Shown here one piece after another: positions 10,211 to 58,856 of a stretch of 64,000 nt of DNA. The DNA is taken from assembly GCA_003222115.1 (NCBI GenBank), contig QHUL01000069.1:12417-76416 (forward strand), read 5' to 3'. The DNA is from Gemmatimonadota bacterium. GTDB taxonomy: Bacteria > Gemmatimonadota > Gemmatimonadetes > Gemmatimonadales > GWC2-71-9. Within the stretch, counting starts at the first letter, position 1. Each line of letters opens with the position of its first letter. Both the position numbers and the translations under genes were made by a program. Under the pieces are notes generated by a model. It ran no database searches and was not told the origin of the DNA. It worked only from the letters and a program-made list of their open reading frames with translations.

Positions 10211-10319
10211 TGCGGAGTGCGGAGTGCGGAGTGCGGAATGCGGAGTGTAATTGGAAGGTCGCACGGGGAAGCGAGGCCCGCATTCACACTCCGCACTCCG
10301 CATTCCGCATTCCGCATTC
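10211..10319. repeat. Tandem-heptamer hairpin (unit TGCGGAR)
   Basis: Left arm 10211-10247 is five units. Right arm 10285-10319 is CAYTCCG units. Loop is about 37 nt. Lies between divergent mtnA and the enoyl-CoA hydratase gene. Confidence 0.9.
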
Positions 10320-29539: not shown

Positions 29540-31460
29540 CGCCGCCGAAGACCACCCAAGTGAGGCTGTTGGCCTCGACGCGCACGCGCTGGCTCAATCG
29601 CTGCCCGTCCACCACGACCGCCAGGGTGTAGTCCCCGGGCGGCACGTCGCCGATGGCGAAGTGCTCCTGGTACGCCGGATCGGAGTGAGCGCGCTCGCCG
29701 TAGGTCTCGACGTAGGAGAACGGCGTCTCCTGGGGCTCGGCCTTGGTCAGGCCGAAGATGCGGGCCTGCCGGACGGGCTCCCCGCGACCGTCCCACACCT
29801 GCCCCGCGACCACGCCCGTCCCGGGTAACGGGCTGATCCACAACTCCGGGTTCGCCGTGTAGCGGGGGAACCGCTCGCCCGGATCCACGATGAGGGGCAC
29901 GGAGTCCGTCGCCGCCGCGTGGACCTCGAGGTGCAGGTGGTCGTTCGTGGCTCGGCCCGTATTGCCGACCCTCGCGATCACGTCGCCGGCTTTGACCCGA
30001 CCGCCCACTGCGGCGAGCAACTTGGAGTTGTGGTAGTAGGTGGAAAAGACAAAGCGCTGTCCGCCGTCAGCTTTCAGGTTGCGGTCGTGTCTGATCGCGA
30101 CTGTCAGCGAGCCCGACTCGGCGGGTCCCGCGAACACCACGACGCCGTCCCCGATCGCGTGGACCGGCGTGCCGTCGGGAGCGTTGAACTCGACGCCTTG
30201 ATGCTGCTGGAAGGCCCCACCCATCGTCGAGCCGTAGCGGTACGTCTGATCGATGTACGCCTGGTCGTCGAGGGCGATGGGCCGCTGGAACCACGTGTGC
30301 TTGAGCCCCTGCGTGTTCGTGTCCGCCGGGGGGCGGTACGTCACGCCCACCAGCGTCAACCCCTGGTCGAAGCGGCAGCTCGCCAGGCCCGTGGGGCGAC
30401 CCACGGCGTACCAGCCGGCCGAGAGGGGCAGGAACGCGGTGGCCATCCTGACGGGATCGCAGATGCTGAGCGGGTCGTCGTAGCGGAACACCCCTCCCGG
30501 TGTGGCCGCGTACACGTCGCGGGGCGGCGCACGGTCCAGCCGCTGCACGGGCGGAATGTCGGCGCGGCACTTCTTGATGATGGGCCCGCGCCCGCAGTTG
30601 GCGCGCCCCCGCCGGTCCACCCAGAGGCCGCGCGTCGGGTCGAGGCGGTACAAACCCCGCTCGGTGCCCACCCACACGCCGCCCGAGTCGGCGGCGAGCG
30701 CGCGGATCCGGTTGACGCAGCGGGCGGGATCGCAGGGCGAGGGCTCCGGGAACTCGCTCCAGGTGCGCCCGCCGTCGGCCGAGCGCGCCAGCCCGCGCAG
30801 GTGCGCCGCCCACAGGCTCCCGTCCGGCCCGGCGGCGAGCGCGAGGACGTACTGGCTCGCGATCCGGCCGACGACGTGCGGCGCCGTCGCCGCACCGGCG
30901 GAGTCCGTGATCTCCGCCCAGGTCGCACCGCGGTCCCCGGTCAGTTTGATCCCGTCCGCCGTGGCCACGTAGACGGTGTCGCCCCGCGTGACGATGCCGT
31001 TGGGCGTCACGTACTGCCACTCCGGGCCGAGCTGCGTCAGCTCCCAATTGGTCCAGGTCTTGCCGCCGTCCGTGGAGAGGCCCCAGCCGTTACCGACGGT
31101 GCCGTACCAGATGGCGCCCCGCGGCCCGAATCCGAACGCCTGGACGAAGTCCCAGGAGATCGAGTGGGCGGCGGTGTCCACGTTGTGGCCGCTGTGCTCC
31201 CAGGTCCCCGCGCCCGGCCGCAGGACATAGATCCCCTGACCGTAGGTCCCGACCCAGACGGCGCCGTCCGGCGCCCGCGCGAGCGCGAGCACGTGCACGC
31301 CGAAGCCGGTCGTGTCGGGCAGGGGCGGGAGCGCCTGGGCGGTGGCGGTGCCGAGTGGAGCCACGGCCAGCAGGGAGAGAAGTGCGGAGTGCGGAATGCG
31401 GAATGCGGAGTGATCGCCGGCGACCAGCCGGTGGCCAGGTAGCTGCGGCTCGCCCCGCAT
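29529..31460 (-). CDS. Secreted M23 metallopeptidase with N-terminal propeller-like repeats
   Basis: M23 core ...GNTGRATNDHLHLEVH. Repeats DGGKTW and DGGRTW. Signal h-region LLSLLAVAPLGTATAQA. Start is uncertain (31460 or 31490) because it lies within a hairpin. Confidence 0.8.
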   Translation of the reverse strand: MRGEPQLPGHRLVAGDHSAFRIPHSALLSLLAVAPLGTATAQALPPLPDTTGFGVHVLALARAPDGAVWVGTYGQGIYVLRPGAGTWEHSGHNVDTAAHSISWDFVQAFGFGPRGAIWYGTVGNGWGLSTDGGKTWTNWELTQLGPEWQYVTPNGIVTRGDTVYVATADGIKLTGDRGATWAEITDSAGAATAPHVVGRIASQYVLALAAGPDGSLWAAHLRGLARSADGGRTWSEFPEPSPCDPARCVNRIRALAADSGGVWVGTERGLYRLDPTRGLWVDRRGRANCGRGPIIKKCRADIPPVQRLDRAPPRDVYAATPGGVFRYDDPLSICDPVRMATAFLPLSAGWYAVGRPTGLASCRFDQGLTLVGVTYRPPADTNTQGLKHTWFQRPIALDDQAYIDQTYRYGSTMGGAFQQHQGVEFNAPDGTPVHAIGDGVVVFAGPAESGSLTVAIRHDRNLKADGGQRFVFSTYYHNSKLLAAVGGRVKAGDVIARVGNTGRATNDHLHLEVHAAATDSVPLIVDPGERFPRYTANPELWISPLPGTGVVAGQVWDGRGEPVRQARIFGLTKAEPQETPFSYVETYGERAHSDPAYQEHFAIGDVPPGDYTLAVVVDGQRLSQRVRVEANSLTWVVFGGDAH

Positions 31461-31490
31461 ACTCCGCATTCCGCACTCCGCATTCCGCAT
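31382..31490. repeat. Tandem-heptamer hairpin (unit TGCGGAR) spanning the 5' end of the M23 gene
   Basis: Left arm 31382-31412 and right arm 31456-31490. Same unit as 10211 and 37174. Confidence 0.9.
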
Positions 31491-31494
31491 TGGT

Positions 31495-37173: not shown

Positions 37174-37250
37174 GCGAGTGCGGAGTGCGGAATTCGGAAT
37201 GCGGAGTTCCCGCGGAAACTCCGCATTCCGCACTCCGCATTCCGCATTCG
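37174..37250. repeat. Tandem-heptamer hairpin (unit TGCGGAR) filling the GNAT-stop to permease-start gap
   Basis: Left arm 37174-37208, 8-nt loop, right arm 37217-37250. About 80 percent of positions pair by eye. Confidence 0.9.
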
Positions 37251-46976: not shown

Positions 46977-47492
46977 TCAGGCGGTGACCTCGACGTTCGG
47001 GAAGGGGGGCACCTCCAAGAACCACAAGCCGGCGAGGCGCGACTGCTTGTCCAGCTCGACGAGGACGTGGTCGGCGATGCGCACGACCATCGCGGCGCGC
47101 GTTCGCCCCACCCGGATGTGCAGCACGGACTCGGTGTGGTTCTTCTCGACTGTGAGCGCCGTGTCCACCTCAACCGCGGCCACGTTCGGTTGCGACTTGC
47201 GGCTCGCGAAGACGACGCGGCCTTCCTTCGTGGGCTCCGGCACCACCAGCGCGTCGACGGTGCGGACGTCGTCCGGCCAGCTGACCACTTCCACGCCGCG
47301 CAGCACGCCGCCCGCCACGTCGAGCAGCACGAAGGACCCGTCGTCGCCCTCCAGGTCCACCGTCCCGTTGAGCCCGCTCGCCTTCGCCACGCCCTTGCAG
47401 GCCACCGAGAGAATGTCGGTCTCGGGGTCCCAGCGATAGCTGACCTTGGGGAGCTTCCCGTCGAGTGGTTCGATGCGTGTCTCGAAGCTCAT
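46977..47492 (-). CDS. Hypothetical protein (DUF2283-like YxxDxExDxL segments)
   Basis: ATG 47492. VSYRWDPETDILSV. First gene of the long minus-strand operon. Confidence 0.45.
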   Translation of the reverse strand: MSFETRIEPLDGKLPKVSYRWDPETDILSVACKGVAKASGLNGTVDLEGDDGSFVLLDVAGGVLRGVEVVSWPDDVRTVDALVVPEPTKEGRVVFASRKSQPNVAAVEVDTALTVEKNHTESVLHIRVGRTRAAMVVRIADHVLVELDKQSRLAGLWFLEVPPFPNVEVTA

Positions 47493-47527
47493 GCGGACGT
47501 CGCCTTCCTGTGGTACGGGAGGGGGGG

Positions 47528-47534
47528 TAATATA
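47528..47534. promoter_or_regulatory. AT-rich TAATATA island in the divergent promoter region
   Basis: The only AT-rich hexamers in the 70-nt gap between divergent starts 47492 and 47563. Candidate -10 boxes on both strands. Confidence 0.25.
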
Positions 47535-47562
47535 GGCGCCACCTCCGAGGGGGGCTAGGACG

Positions 47563-48801
47563 ATGGAGCGGCGGGAGTTCTTGATGGTAGCCGGGGCGGT
47601 CGCGGCGGCGTGGCCAACGCGGAAGGCGGAAGTCGGAACGCGGAACTGGGAGCCGGACGACTCGTTCCGCGTTCCGCGTTCCACGTTCCGCGTTGCCCCC
47701 ACCCAGGAGCCCGCCCTCTCCCGCGACGTCTTCGCCCGCCGGCTCGCCCGGGCCCAGCAGGAGCTGCAGGCGCGCAAGACCGATCTCCTCATTGCCACGC
47801 CGGGGACGAACTACGAGTACCTCACGGGCTACAACCCCGGCCGCAGCGAGCGGCTGATCGCGCTGCTCCTCCCCGCCAGGGGCGACCCCACGATCGTCTG
47901 CCCCAGCTTCGAGGTCGAGCGGATCCGGCAGCACAGCGTGGTGGCCGCCACCCGCGGCTGGGAGGAGCAGGACGACCCCTACCGCCTGGTGCGGCAGGCG
48001 GTCCGGGAGATGAGGCTCAGCGCGCGGGCCGTGGCGCTGGAATCGACCACCGCCTACGCCGTCGCCTTGCGGCTCGCGGAGGCCCTTGGCGGGAAATTCG
48101 CGGATGCCGCCCCGATCACCGATCGGCTGCGCATCATCAAATCCCCCGAAGAGGTCGCGCTGATCCGTCAGGCCATCGACATCACGGAGGCGGCGATCGC
48201 CGCGACGTTCGCGAAGCTCGCGGCGGGCGCGAGCGAGCGGGAGGTGGCCCAGCTGCTGTCGGGTGAGATGCGGCAGCGCGGCGCCGAGGGAGGCGGCCTG
48301 GTCCAGTTCGGGCCCTCCAGCGCGCTGCCGCACGGCGGGCCCGGCGGCCCGACGCTGGCGCGGGAGATGGTGGTGCTGATCGACTGCGGATGTCGCGTCG
48401 CCGGCTACACGTCCGACATCACGCGCACGACGTGGTTCGGGGACTCCCCGGTGCCGGAGTTCACGCAGGTGTTCAACCTGGTGCACGACGCGCAGACGGC
48501 CGCCATGCAGCAGCCCCCGCTCACGCCATGCCAGGAGATGGACCGGGTGGCGCGCCGCGTGATCGCGCAGGGCGGCTTCGGCCCCTTCTTCACCCACCGC
48601 CTTGGCCACGGCATGGGCCTGGACGGTCACGAGCCCCCCTACCTCGTGGAAGGCAACGCCACGCCGCTCGAGCCCGGCATGGTGTTCACCATCGAGCCGG
48701 GGATCTACCAGCTCGGCAAGTTCGGCGTACGGATCGAGGACGATTGCGTGATGACCGAACGCAACATCGAGGTTCTATCTCACAGAGCGGCCAAGCTCTA
48801 A
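47563..48801 (+). CDS. M24-family Xaa-Pro peptidase with Tat-type signal
   Basis: MERREFLMVAGAVAAAW. DCGCRVAGYTSDITRT, HRLGHGMGLDGHE, EPGIY, RIEDD. No usable start codon downstream of the internal hairpin. Confidence 0.85.
   Translation: MERREFLMVAGAVAAAWPTRKAEVGTRNWEPDDSFRVPRSTFRVAPTQEPALSRDVFARRLARAQQELQARKTDLLIATPGTNYEYLTGYNPGRSERLIALLLPARGDPTIVCPSFEVERIRQHSVVAATRGWEEQDDPYRLVRQAVREMRLSARAVALESTTAYAVALRLAEALGGKFADAAPITDRLRIIKSPEEVALIRQAIDITEAAIAATFAKLAAGASEREVAQLLSGEMRQRGAEGGGLVQFGPSSALPHGGPGGPTLAREMVVLIDCGCRVAGYTSDITRTTWFGDSPVPEFTQVFNLVHDAQTAAMQQPPLTPCQEMDRVARRVIAQGGFGPFFTHRLGHGMGLDGHEPPYLVEGNATPLEPGMVFTIEPGIYQLGKFGVRIEDDCVMTERNIEVLSHRAAKL
47616..47694. repeat. Tandem-heptamer hairpin (units CGCGGAA/GGCGGAA/GTCGGAA) inside the M24 CDS
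   Basis: Arms 47616-47646 and 47664-47694, about 27 of 31 complementary. Translated as TRKAEVGTRNWEPDDSFRVPRSTFRV. Confidence 0.9.
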
Positions 48802-49196
48802 CGGGGACGAGGGACGGGGGACGAGGGACGGGGTGACTCCCGACGACGCTGTAGGGTAAATACCAGTCCGATCAGCAATCCGACCTCTCGATTGGCAAGC
48901 TTCAACGAGTCTTGCACGTCGGTGGCCGCGGCAAGGTGCAAATCAGCGACCAACTCAAGATGAGTGCATAACTCCGTGGCCGAACCCAGCGCGATCCGGA
49001 GAAACCGGACGAACTGTGGGGTCGTTCCGAGCGCGTATCCCTCAGCGATGTTGGCAGGAACCGCCGCGGAAGCGCGGCGAATCTGATCCGACAGTCCAAA
49101 GTGCCGGCTGAGAGGCGCGTGCAGCGTCAAACGATAGGCCCGGCGAGACAGCTCCCGCCCGCAGTTCCATGCCTCGAGGGAATTGAGCTTGTTCAC
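48798..49196 (-). CDS. Four-helix-bundle protein (23S rRNA intervening-sequence protein family)
   Basis: GTG 49196. SLEAWNCGRELS..., SDQIRRASAAVPANIAEGY, FLRIALGSATEL. The C-terminal tail ESPRPSSPVPRPR is read from the repeat arm. Confidence 0.8.
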   Translation of the reverse strand: MNKLNSLEAWNCGRELSRRAYRLTLHAPLSRHFGLSDQIRRASAAVPANIAEGYALGTTPQFVRFLRIALGSATELCTHLELVADLHLAAATDVQDSLKLANREVGLLIGLVFTLQRRRESPRPSSPVPRPR

Positions 49197-49298
49197 CCGG
49201 GAAATCTGGGGAACCGATCGTCAGACTGAGAACCCTTTACCCGCAGTCAGGGCCGATCTCGTGCAGGACCCGTCTCCCGTCCCACGTCCCCCGTCCCA
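48802..49298. mobile_element. Inverted-repeat-bounded cassette carrying a four-helix-bundle gene (IVS-like element)
   Basis: Arms 48802-48835 (GGGACGR units) and 49270-49298 are complementary. The interior has A/T3-richer codons. The cassette exactly fills a stop-to-stop gap. Confidence 0.6.
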
Positions 49299-53980: not shown

Positions 53981-54044
53981 AGACATCAGACATCAGACGT
54001 CAGACATCAGCGTGCTGAGATCTGATGTCTGATGTCTGACGTCT
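53981..54044. repeat. Tandem-heptamer hairpin (unit GACRTCA) filling the tdk-stop to coaE-start gap
   Basis: Left arm 53981-54010, 10-nt loop, right arm 54021-54044. Confidence 0.9.
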
Positions 54045-54045
54045 C

Positions 54046-54657
54046 ATGCTGAACGTCGGTCTCACCGGCAACATCGCCTCCGGCAAGTCCACCGTGGTCG
54101 ACCTGTTCCGTCGCTGGGGGGCGACGATCATCGACGCCGACGCGCTGGCCCGCGAAGCGCAGGCGCCCGGGGGCGAGGTGCTGGCCGCGATCGCCCGGCG
54201 CTTCGGCGCGGACGTGCTGGCTGGGGACGGCTCGCTCGATCGCGCCGCGTTGCGAGCGAAGGTGATGGGTGACGACGCCGCCCTTGCGGCGCTGAACGCG
54301 ATCGTCCACCCCGCGGTGCGGCAGCGCCGCGCGCAGTTGATCCGCGCCGCCCGCTCGCGCGGCGACCTGCTCGTCGTGAACGACATCCCGCTCCTGTTCG
54401 AGGTGCTCGACCCGGCCGAGTTCGACGTGGTCGTTCTCGTGGACGCGCCGGTTGCCCTGCGGCGCACCCGGTTGCGGGCGATGCGCGGCCTGGGGAACGA
54501 GGAGGCGGACCGGATGATCGCGGCCCAGATGCCCGCGGAGCGCAAGCGCGGCCGCAGCCACTACGTCATCGACAACAAAGGCACGTTGGAGGAGCTGGAG
54601 GCCGACGCGCGCCGCCTGTACGACGTGCTGGCGGCGCGGGCCAAGCAGTTGCCTTGA
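54046..54657 (+). CDS. coaE: Dephospho-CoA kinase
   Basis: VGLTGNIASGKST P-loop, and the typical length. Confidence 0.9.
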   Translation: MLNVGLTGNIASGKSTVVDLFRRWGATIIDADALAREAQAPGGEVLAAIARRFGADVLAGDGSLDRAALRAKVMGDDAALAALNAIVHPAVRQRRAQLIRAARSRGDLLVVNDIPLLFEVLDPAEFDVVVLVDAPVALRRTRLRAMRGLGNEEADRMIAAQMPAERKRGRSHYVIDNKGTLEELEADARRLYDVLAARAKQLP

Positions 54658-58036: not shown

Positions 58037-58856
58037 GGCGGATGGTCGGAAGGTTGGAAGGTTGGAAGGTGTACCCGACCTTCCAACTTTCCAACTTTCC
58101 ATCGACTCAATCGGCCGCTCCGGCGCCGAGAACATGGCGCTGGACCAATGGCTGTTGGAGCAAGCCGACCAGAGCGGCCGCGCGTTCTTGCGGCTGTACC
58201 GCTGGGACCCACCCTGCCTCTCGCTCGGCCGCAACGAGCCCGCCACCCGCCGCTACGATCGGGCCGCGATCGCGCGGCTGGGGCTCGACGTGGTGCGCCG
58301 GCCGACGGGCGGGCGCGCGGTGTGGCACCAGCACGAAGTGACCTACGCCGTGGCCGCGCCCGTCGGCGCCCTCGGCTCGCCGCGTGAGAGCTACCGCCGG
58401 ATCCACGAGTGGCTGGCGCGTGCGCTGCGGGCTCTCGGCGTCGAGGCCACGCTGGCCCCCAACGGTCCGACCGTCCCACTGCGACCGTCAGGGAGTCCTT
58501 TAGGGTCCGACGGATCCGGGGCCTGCTTCGAGAGGCCCGCGGGTGGCGAGGTCGTCGTTGGCGGACGGAAGCTCGTCGGGTCGGCCCAGGTGCGTCAGCG
58601 CACGGCGTTGCTGCAGCACGGCTCGATCTTGCTCGAGGGGTCGCAGGAGATCATCGGCGCCATCAGCCGTCAGCCATCGGCTATCAGCGGAGGAACGACG
58701 TTGGCCGCGGTGCTGGGCCGGCCCGTCTCATTCGACGAAGTCGCCGGAGCGGTCGTGCAGTCCTGGGGCAACGCCGTGACTGCTGCCGCCCCTTACCGCC
58801 CCTTACCGCCCTTGACCTCATTCTTTTCCGACCCTGCCTGGACCTGGCGCCGCTAG
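58017..58856 (+). CDS. Lipoate-protein ligase family (LplA/LipB-fold) protein
   Basis: [30 protein letters not shown]. The conserved N-terminal strand LSIDS lies upstream of ATG 58134. Start is therefore ATG 58017 or TTG 58062, both reading through the hairpin. Confidence 0.65.
58044..58104. repeat. Tandem-octamer hairpin (unit GGTTGGAA)
   Basis: Left arm 58044-58070 and right arm 58078-58104. Mismatches are G opposite T (G-U compatible on the plus-strand RNA). Confidence 0.9.
58481..58500. repeat. Short dispersed repeat copy 3 (GCGACCGTCAGGGAGTCCTT)
   Basis: Exact 20-mer shared with the reverse complement of about 3811-3830. Both encode RPSGSP in their host genes. Confidence 0.7.

Follow-up and report, generated by a model that had tools for sequence, protein, structure and literature searches.

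A hairpin of inverted heptamer arrays within the reading frame of an M24 peptidase gene in Gemmatimonadota: probably tolerated repeat DNA in a disordered linker

How does a complete hairpin come to lie inside the reading frame of an enzyme gene, and does the enzyme need it? This question is raised by the gene of an M24-family Xaa-Pro peptidase (positions 47563–48801, plus strand; 412 amino acids, aa) in a stretch of 64,000 nucleotides (nt) from a Gemmatimonadota bacterium (GenBank assembly GCA_003222115.1, contig QHUL01000069.1, positions 12,417–76,416), hereafter the window. The open reading frame (ORF) remains open through a hairpin with arms made of inverted arrays of 7-nt units, so that the gene comprises an N-terminal signal, a hairpin-encoded linker, and the mature enzyme. 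The hairpin is probably tolerated palindromic repeat DNA in a permissive, disordered linker and not a working part of the enzyme; the probability that we assign to this reading is approximately 0.78.

The left arm of the hairpin (47615–47646, plus strand; CAACGCGGAAGGCGGAAGTCGGAACGCGGAAC) contains 4.5 ACGCGGA units, including the variants AGGCGGA and AGTCGGA, and reads (P)TRKAEVGTRN. It is followed by a 17-nt loop (47647–47663, plus strand; TGGGAGCCGGACGACTC), reading WEPDDS, and by the right arm (47664–47695, plus strand; GTTCCGCGTTCCGCGTTCCACGTTCCGCGTTG), in which 4.5 TCCGCGT units, one of them being the variant TCCACGT, read FRVPRSTFRV. The arms, 32 nt each, pair at 28 of 32 positions by our own count; an earlier note, made from the sequence alone, had described a 79-nt hairpin at 47616–47694 with approximately 27 of 31 positions complementary, and had quoted the peptide encoded by the arms exactly as it is read here. 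A scan for tandem arrays finds 4.4 and 4.6 copies in the two arms (matches of 83 and 92%, respectively), above the threshold of at least three copies, and the arms are mutually reverse-complementary. Neither arm has a stop codon within its units, whichever frame is read.

The 99-nt stretch with the hairpin is predicted to fold as RNA at –62.8 kcal/mol, compared to –42.0 ± 3.5 kcal/mol for 200 dinucleotide shuffles (z = –5.97), none of the 200 being equally stable, and the antisense strand folds slightly better than the sense one. The stem is followed by GCCCCCACCCAGG and lacks a trailing T run, and hence the possibility that it is an intrinsic terminator was rejected. A search of the region 47400–47900 against Rfam 15 at E ≤ 1 yielded only generic hairpin (microRNA precursor) matches, far below the gathering score, and inspection of the element flanks by eye revealed no target-site duplications.

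The host gene appears to encode a complete enzyme. In the 412-aa protein, Pfam identifies Creatinase_N at residues 60–192 (E = 8e-19, 68.9 bits with the cut-off of 22) and Peptidase_M24 at residues 200–399 (E = 2e-58, 197.8 bits with the cut-off of 23). Residues D274, D285, H349, E378, and E392 do not vary among the 38 orthologs aligned, and their spacing fits that of the five metal ligands of M24B enzymes. Approximately 120 orthologs with 69–99% identity and full query cover are present in the database, their lengths being 404–420 aa.

The N-terminal signal MERREFLMVAGAVAAAW (47563–47613, plus strand) carries an RRxFL-type motif close to the N-terminus and, after it, a hydrophobic stretch, with M1, R3, R4, and F6 invariant in the 38 aligned orthologs. 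Among 121 database proteins, 116 start with M-x-RR-x-F, and the five exceptions comprise proteins with truncated or miscalled N-termini and one protein with G replacing the first R. A candidate signal peptidase site, found by eye, is A-A-A before W17, with V/I/T-x-A/G in orthologs, and TatC is encoded on contig C33 (216 bits), which indicates that the twin-arginine (Tat) machinery is present in the genome. Short signals are often missed by models such as TIGR01409 or PF10518; with three N-termini searched, these curated Tat signal models gave no NCBIfam match at E ≤ 10, and no Pfam signal match was found. The twin-arginine likeness proposed in the earlier note is thus a pattern fitted by eye only, with no match to a hidden Markov model (HMM). 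The peptidase is probably exported via the Tat pathway.

In the AlphaFold2 model, calculated with 38 orthologs, the confidence measure pLDDT is below 50 for residues 1–50, where the only helix is at residues 3–16, and the fold begins near residue 51. The hairpin-encoded segment, placed between the signal and the catalytic domain as originally described, is thus predicted to be a disordered linker.

Whether the linker is indeed made depends on where translation starts. Upstream of the hairpin there are three in-frame starts, ATG 47563, TTG 47581, and ATG 47584, while the next canonical one (ATG, GTG, or TTG) downstream is GTG 47938, codon 126, within Creatinase_N. The previous claim that usable starts exist only upstream of the hairpin therefore holds, with TTG 47581 to be added to the list. 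The same arrangement was analyzed in DNA of 31 orthologous loci, the first 25 of which constituted an earlier subset. All 31 loci start with ATG, in most cases preceded by a GGAGG-type (Shine-Dalgarno) site, and both arginines of the signal are retained via synonymous codons (CGG, AGG, CGA, and CGC for R3 and R4), as is F6 (TTT or TTC). The distance from this ATG to the QEP codons that open the mature part takes 12 different values from 96 to 147 nt in the first 25 loci and 15 values in all 31, every one of them being a multiple of three, and the frame is single and open in 30 of the 31. In 22 loci, the first canonical start after the hairpin-bearing segment (further, the cassette) is situated past the NYEY motif of the mature domain, or equally deep.

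Conservation of the start, the RR codons, and the frame, along with the scarcity of downstream starts, supports translation through both arms, as the earlier note had suggested, with ATG 47563 as the start. Taken together with the predicted disorder, these comparisons imply that the precursor probably includes the hairpin peptide as a disordered linker. The only locus with a broken frame, L016 (L016:1501–1700, MNEL01000016), has a deletion that begins in the right arm and reaches the FARR codons, shifting the frame; the locus is a pseudogene, or else the repeat was misassembled.

The signal seems to be older than the hairpin. In a phylum sample of 201 genomes, close orthologs (defined by E < 1e-160) are found in five genera of one family, and a hairpin is present at the site in several Gemmatimonadales genera. 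As the element is shared by several genera, the idea that one insertion arose recently in this genome alone was rejected. More distant homologues, with 50–53% and approximately 40% identity, begin with RRxFL signals, and the plain linkers that follow contain nothing resembling a hairpin peptide; hence the signal predates the hairpin. This bears out the expectation, to be checked according to the earlier note by alignment of orthologs, that the linker segment is an insertion; the opposite outcome named there is not observed, as no hairpin-less ortholog has the same linker residues.

The element may be lost as well. Half hairpins retaining one arm only are seen in loci L014, L028, and L010, and a degenerate stretch or no hairpin at all, in L013, L023, and L026; in some lineages, the linker-encoding stretch is 11–15 residues shorter. 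Since the gene stays intact in cases of half hairpins and losses, the hairpin is dispensable for it.

The composition of cassettes at the M24 site differs widely between orthologs. Heptamer cassettes belong to four families, with AC, AT, GT, or TT preceding GCGGA in the unit, and cassettes of octamer units are found at the same site as well. The encoded peptides differ accordingly: TRKAEVGTRN...FRVPRS... in AC cassettes, MRNAEFGMRN...FRTPHSAFR or VRSAECGVRS... in AT or GT cassettes, and ADWRLRIAD...NPQSAIRNPQS in TT cassettes. Cassette types do not track the tree of mature domains: when mapped on it, they require 57 changes on 119 tips, compared to 77 (range 68–84) for shuffled labels, and where the mature domains of two orthologs are at least 97% identical, the cassette is shared in only 58% of pairs. 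For example, the window and locus L039 have 99% identity in the upstream flank and across 900 nt of the gene, while the stretch from codon 8 to the codon before Q48 is unalignable. The reverse situation is also observed: L005 and L017 have 95% identical cassettes in 76% identical genes, and the cassette of L003 is 87% identical to that of the window, with related loops, while the genes are 75% identical. Moreover, the TT_short cassette is found in two backgrounds (L039 and L042) that differ in single-nucleotide polymorphisms on both flanks, which indicates that cassettes reassort by recombination, at least among close relatives. No paralogous donor for cassette conversion was found: the genome has no second copy of this M24 gene, and other M24 matches are at most 37% identical.

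The positions of units within the cassettes are, on the other hand, maintained. In the left arm, GCGGA cores are located 56, 63, and 77 nt from the ATG, and the TCGGA variant, at 70 nt, alike in AC, AT, GT, and TT cassettes; in some orthologs these distances are 3 or 9 nt less due to upstream codon loss. Counting back from the QEP codon, the right-arm cores are found at 38, 31, 24, and 17 nt in AC, AT, and GT cassettes, and at 34, 27, 20, and 13 nt in TT cassettes. The families differ mainly in the two bases between the cores, changed jointly in all units of both arms, and without frame-breaking 7-nt steps.

Pairing is maintained, too. In an ungapped alignment of ten 83-nt hairpins, stem cells are paired in 87% of cases, compared to 29–48% with the partner slid, and seven stem pairs are changed on both sides across genera. 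The covariation score of the stem is 0.162 against 0.113 in shuffles, and was reached in one of 500 of them. One stem position is unpaired in nine of the ten hairpins, and a mismatch bubble in the third unit (alignment columns 18–19 with 63–64, corresponding to 47632–47633 with 47677–47678 in the window) is likewise kept in nine of ten, irrespective of unit family and orientation. From the same core positions and the stem covariation, it follows that the unit families at the site share either ancestry or a common register.

Entire elements are found in both orientations. The cassette of L002 aligns to the reverse complement of L008, and that of L012, to the reverse complement of L005, L015, and L017. 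In such inverted pairs the arms are identical in the reverse complement, the loops are 65–80% identical, and the loop residues are rewritten by the inversion. A comparison by eye of the loops of L043 and L044 shows 13 of 17 positions matching in the reverse complement versus 5 of 17 in the forward orientation.

The M24 hairpin is a member of a large genomic population. The genome (3.08 Mb, 70% G+C) contains 92 inverted pairs of heptamer or octamer arrays, 80 with loops of at most 80 nt and 12 with long loops; xxGCGGA units are present in 36 of the 92. The hairpins are situated mostly between or within co-directional genes (30 cases, versus 6 in the convergent and 1 in the divergent context). 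In the 30 co-directional cases, the sense strand folds better in 17 and the antisense strand in 10, the difference being not significant, and folding asymmetry was discarded as an argument for or against selection at the RNA level.

About a dozen short-loop hairpins apparently lie in frame within long ORFs, with coding-like codon-position G+C on both sides. In five of them, Pfam confirms this arrangement (UvrA, DnaG, DnaX, KsgA, and asparaginase II), with a single domain match spanning the hairpin in KsgA and asparaginase II; further apparent cases include ftsK, ligD, and the 2-oxoglutarate dehydrogenase gene, among others. The uvrA hairpin is located at L047:2483–2560 (G000 C67:4582–4659), and the dnaG hairpin, at L048:2083–2150 (G000 C29:8082–8149). 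The uvrA site is fixed and is occupied by GT, AC, or TT hairpins, or by a short plain stretch, in relatives that are 89–97% identical over the searched region, the A-E/D-x-G...A-E register being the same in all of them.

Arms of M24-site alleles from other genomes are 100% identical, over 30–34 nt, to arms elsewhere in this genome, the variants included, and arm-loop-arm stretches match other loci with 86–93% identity over 55–80 nt. Hence these are dispersed families and not products of local slippage. The right arm of the M24 hairpin itself is identical over 30 nt to a solo array without a partner in the same genome (G000 C88:6749–6778). At C100:5686–5760, a composite is observed, in which a right arm of the AT/GT family is followed, after 5 nt, by a right arm of the AC family. 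The window contains five more inverted heptamer or octamer pairs, at 10211–10319, 31381–31491, 37176–37249, 53981–54052, and 58040–58101; several of them mix ATGCGGA and GTGCGGA units in one arm, with pairing via G-T or A-C positions.

Two simple schemes of the site history were rejected. Vertical descent combined with local concerted evolution cannot be the sole process given the TT_short cassette in two backgrounds and the arm-loop-arm matches to other loci, and independent insertions cannot be the sole process given the single core register across all unit families.

Under the reading that we prefer, an element from the genome-wide palindromic population, with arms of tandem 7-nt and sometimes 8-nt units, would have entered the linker that joins the mature Xaa-Pro peptidase to its older, twin-arginine-type signal, in an ancestor of several Gemmatimonadales genera. 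It would be transcribed and translated with the gene, and the 26–27 encoded residues would be disordered and tolerated by the enzyme. Later changes would have occurred at the DNA level: inversion of the whole element and joint alteration of both variable bases of every unit on both arms, with the GCGGA cores kept in register, while cassettes would be reassorted among relatives and arms deleted in frame. Frame-breaking variants would be eliminated by purifying selection acting on the enzyme encoded downstream, the insert itself being presumably neutral. Candidate routes of arm switching are register-shifted repair of the hairpin, ectopic conversion from other copies, and re-insertion at the same site.

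No observation links the structure to expression of the M24 gene. This interpretation follows from the tolerated losses, the presence of the same elements in genes of cytoplasmic proteins, the lack of a clear sense-strand bias, and the absence of both an Rfam match and a T run. Three observations fit it less well. The same cassette alleles recur in approximately 75% identical backgrounds, a pattern not expected if one old insertion had simply decayed neutrally. The pairing of 87%, the seven two-sided changes, and the bubble could also be produced by structural selection. Finally, the hydrophobic core of the signal is short, 11–12 residues, in addition to the lack of a Tat HMM match.

The second of these points leads to an alternative, in which the hairpin is a selected cis-acting structure in mRNA or single-stranded DNA of the M24 gene. 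Such a structure could cause a translation pause after the signal, important for folding, metal loading, or Tat targeting, or serve as a processing or stability site, e.g., an RNase III target. It would explain why a strongly folding hairpin persists at one site across genera with compensatory changes and a conserved bubble in the third unit, and the location immediately after the signal peptide suits a pause. Still, orthologs with one arm or without a hairpin retain an intact gene, and hairpins of the same kind, with the same turnover of alleles, are found in the cytoplasmic genes uvrA, dnaG, and dnaX. Sense is not clearly the better folder genome-wide, and at this very site antisense has a slight advantage; inversions and family switching alter the sequence freely, and no Rfam family is matched. 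We consider this alternative, the main rival, unlikely.

The turnover itself may have a more specific cause. An undescribed DNA-level system might rewrite heptamer-armed palindromes in place, flipping them and swapping the two variable bases of each unit while keeping the cores and the length, possibly templated by other copies or linked to the four-helix-bundle genes (PF05635) found within such hairpins; intragenic copies would then be switchable linkers varying within populations. We regard this suggestion as speculative, with the odds clearly against it.

It is still less probable, and indeed quite improbable, that the encoded peptide itself is selected, e.g., as an arginine-rich spacer or a pro-peptide, and that the DNA palindrome is incidental. 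A stretch of approximately 25–30 residues is indeed kept in most orthologs, at the usual position of linkers and pro-peptides. However, peptides as different as TRKAEVGTRN... and ADWRLRIAD... occur in proteins approximately 98–99% identical over the mature domain, while it is the DNA pairing that is kept; inversion changes the loop residues, the segment is predicted to be disordered, and there are the lineages with 11–15 fewer residues.

The weakest alternative, which we find hardly credible, is that a non-canonical codon 3' of the hairpin serves as the start of the enzyme, in which case the upstream ORF would be a separate leader peptide or untranslated and the hairpin would lie in the 5' untranslated region: it would agree with the mostly intergenic location of such hairpins in the genome, the divergent promoter region here, and the ease with which open frames arise at 70% G+C, but the frame is kept in 30 of 31 loci over 15 lengths (approximately (1/3)^14, or about 2e-7, by our own estimate, if the changes are independent and unconstrained), RR is kept via synonymous substitutions, distant hairpin-less homologues have the signal fused to the enzyme, and canonical starts between the hairpin and the conserved domain are lacking in most orthologs.

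Several known systems resemble the tolerated insert in part. Rickettsia palindromic elements (RPEs) are dispersed palindromes, many of them in frame in unrelated housekeeping genes, with the extra peptide compatible with the fold (Ogata et al., 2000, summarised in PMC10969869). The earlier note had pointed to this likeness, and it is apt as an analogy: here, too, the element appears to lie inside an ORF without a stop or frameshift, the host protein being intact on both sides, and so the similarity is one of behaviour. RPEs, however, are approximately 150 bp long, have a conserved encoded peptide, and lack tandem units, whereas here tandem 7-nt units make up the arms, all three frames are read, and the peptide is not conserved. 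At a single site, moreover, both the unit family and the orientation vary among close relatives.

Heptanucleotide repeats were previously observed in other bacteria. GGGNATC arrays of Xanthomonas and Nostoc were studied as intergenic repeats (PMC4692102), and Geobacter metallireducens has elements of four or five heptanucleotide units, both between and within genes, partly drawn as hairpins (PMC2700814). These repeats, as well as the cyanobacterial STRR, share with our elements the number of units (approximately 4–5), dispersed distribution, and location mostly between co-directional genes with some intragenic copies. They were treated as regulatory or quadruplex-forming, with no analysis of translation, orthologous sites, or turnover, whereas our elements consist of xxGCGGA units rather than G-tract repeats and form a complete inverted pair.

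Intragenic invertons are gene segments flanked by inverted repeats and present in both orientations, each of which is open and encodes different residues (bioRxiv 10.1101/2023.03.11.532203). Both orientations are found here as well, seen between genomes only, and the invertible unit is the palindrome itself with its 17-nt core. Finally, REP/REPIN elements, mobilised by RAYT transposases, are short dispersed hairpins that persist vertically at their sites and form families with canonical arms (PMC3733652). Unlike the elements considered here, whose arms are internally periodic, REPs are extragenic and tagged with GTAG or CGTC.

In-frame palindromic repeats are a textbook curiosity of Rickettsia. 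With the M24 site, this behaviour now includes a different type of repeat, inverted arrays with a 7-base unit, and Gemmatimonadota, a phylum that is free-living and found in soil. More than 140 orthologs provide, at one intragenic site, a range of states: four heptamer families, octamers, both orientations, half hairpins, and no hairpin. The strict frame constraint forbids the usual slippage by one unit and makes persistence, homogenisation, and inversion of palindromes in bacterial chromosomes testable. For annotation, it means that start codons should not be moved because of such hairpins, and that the extra peptide segments should not be considered as domain features. If the structure did pause ribosomes after the Tat signal, it would be relevant to export biology, but the present evidence speaks against pausing.

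Upstream of the M24 gene, the region 47527–47560 (plus strand) contains a –10-like TAATATAGG and a ribosome-binding-site-like GAGGGGGG..AGGA before the ATG. It is nearly identical in most orthologous loci shown and absent from the most distant ones, and may function as a promoter, judging from sequence conservation. The whole 69-nt divergent region between this gene and the DUF2283-like gene (start at 47493, minus strand), 47494–47562, is also nearly identical in most orthologous loci; it contains CCTTCC (the ribosome-binding site of the minus-strand gene), TAATATAGG, and GGGAGGxGCTAGGACG-ATG.

On the other side, the M24 gene is followed by a neighbouring element with the same architecture (48803–49298, minus strand), in which a PF05635 four-helix-bundle gene (48798–49196; Pfam 23S_rRNA_IVP, E = 4e-26) is enclosed in tandem arrays forming GGGACGA/CCCGTCC heptamer arms. 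Such heptamer-armed PF05635 cassettes have the same inverted tandem heptamer stem, while the M24 element has a 17-nt loop, carries no gene, and lies inside the coding frame. The M24 gene and an aminotransferase gene converge here, and the PF05635 cassette occupies the space that separates their stop codons. In relatives, the same junction is occupied by the same cassette (L039), a gene-less GGGATGC hairpin (L043), or an 11-nt remnant (L041), or is empty, with adjacent stop codons (L045).

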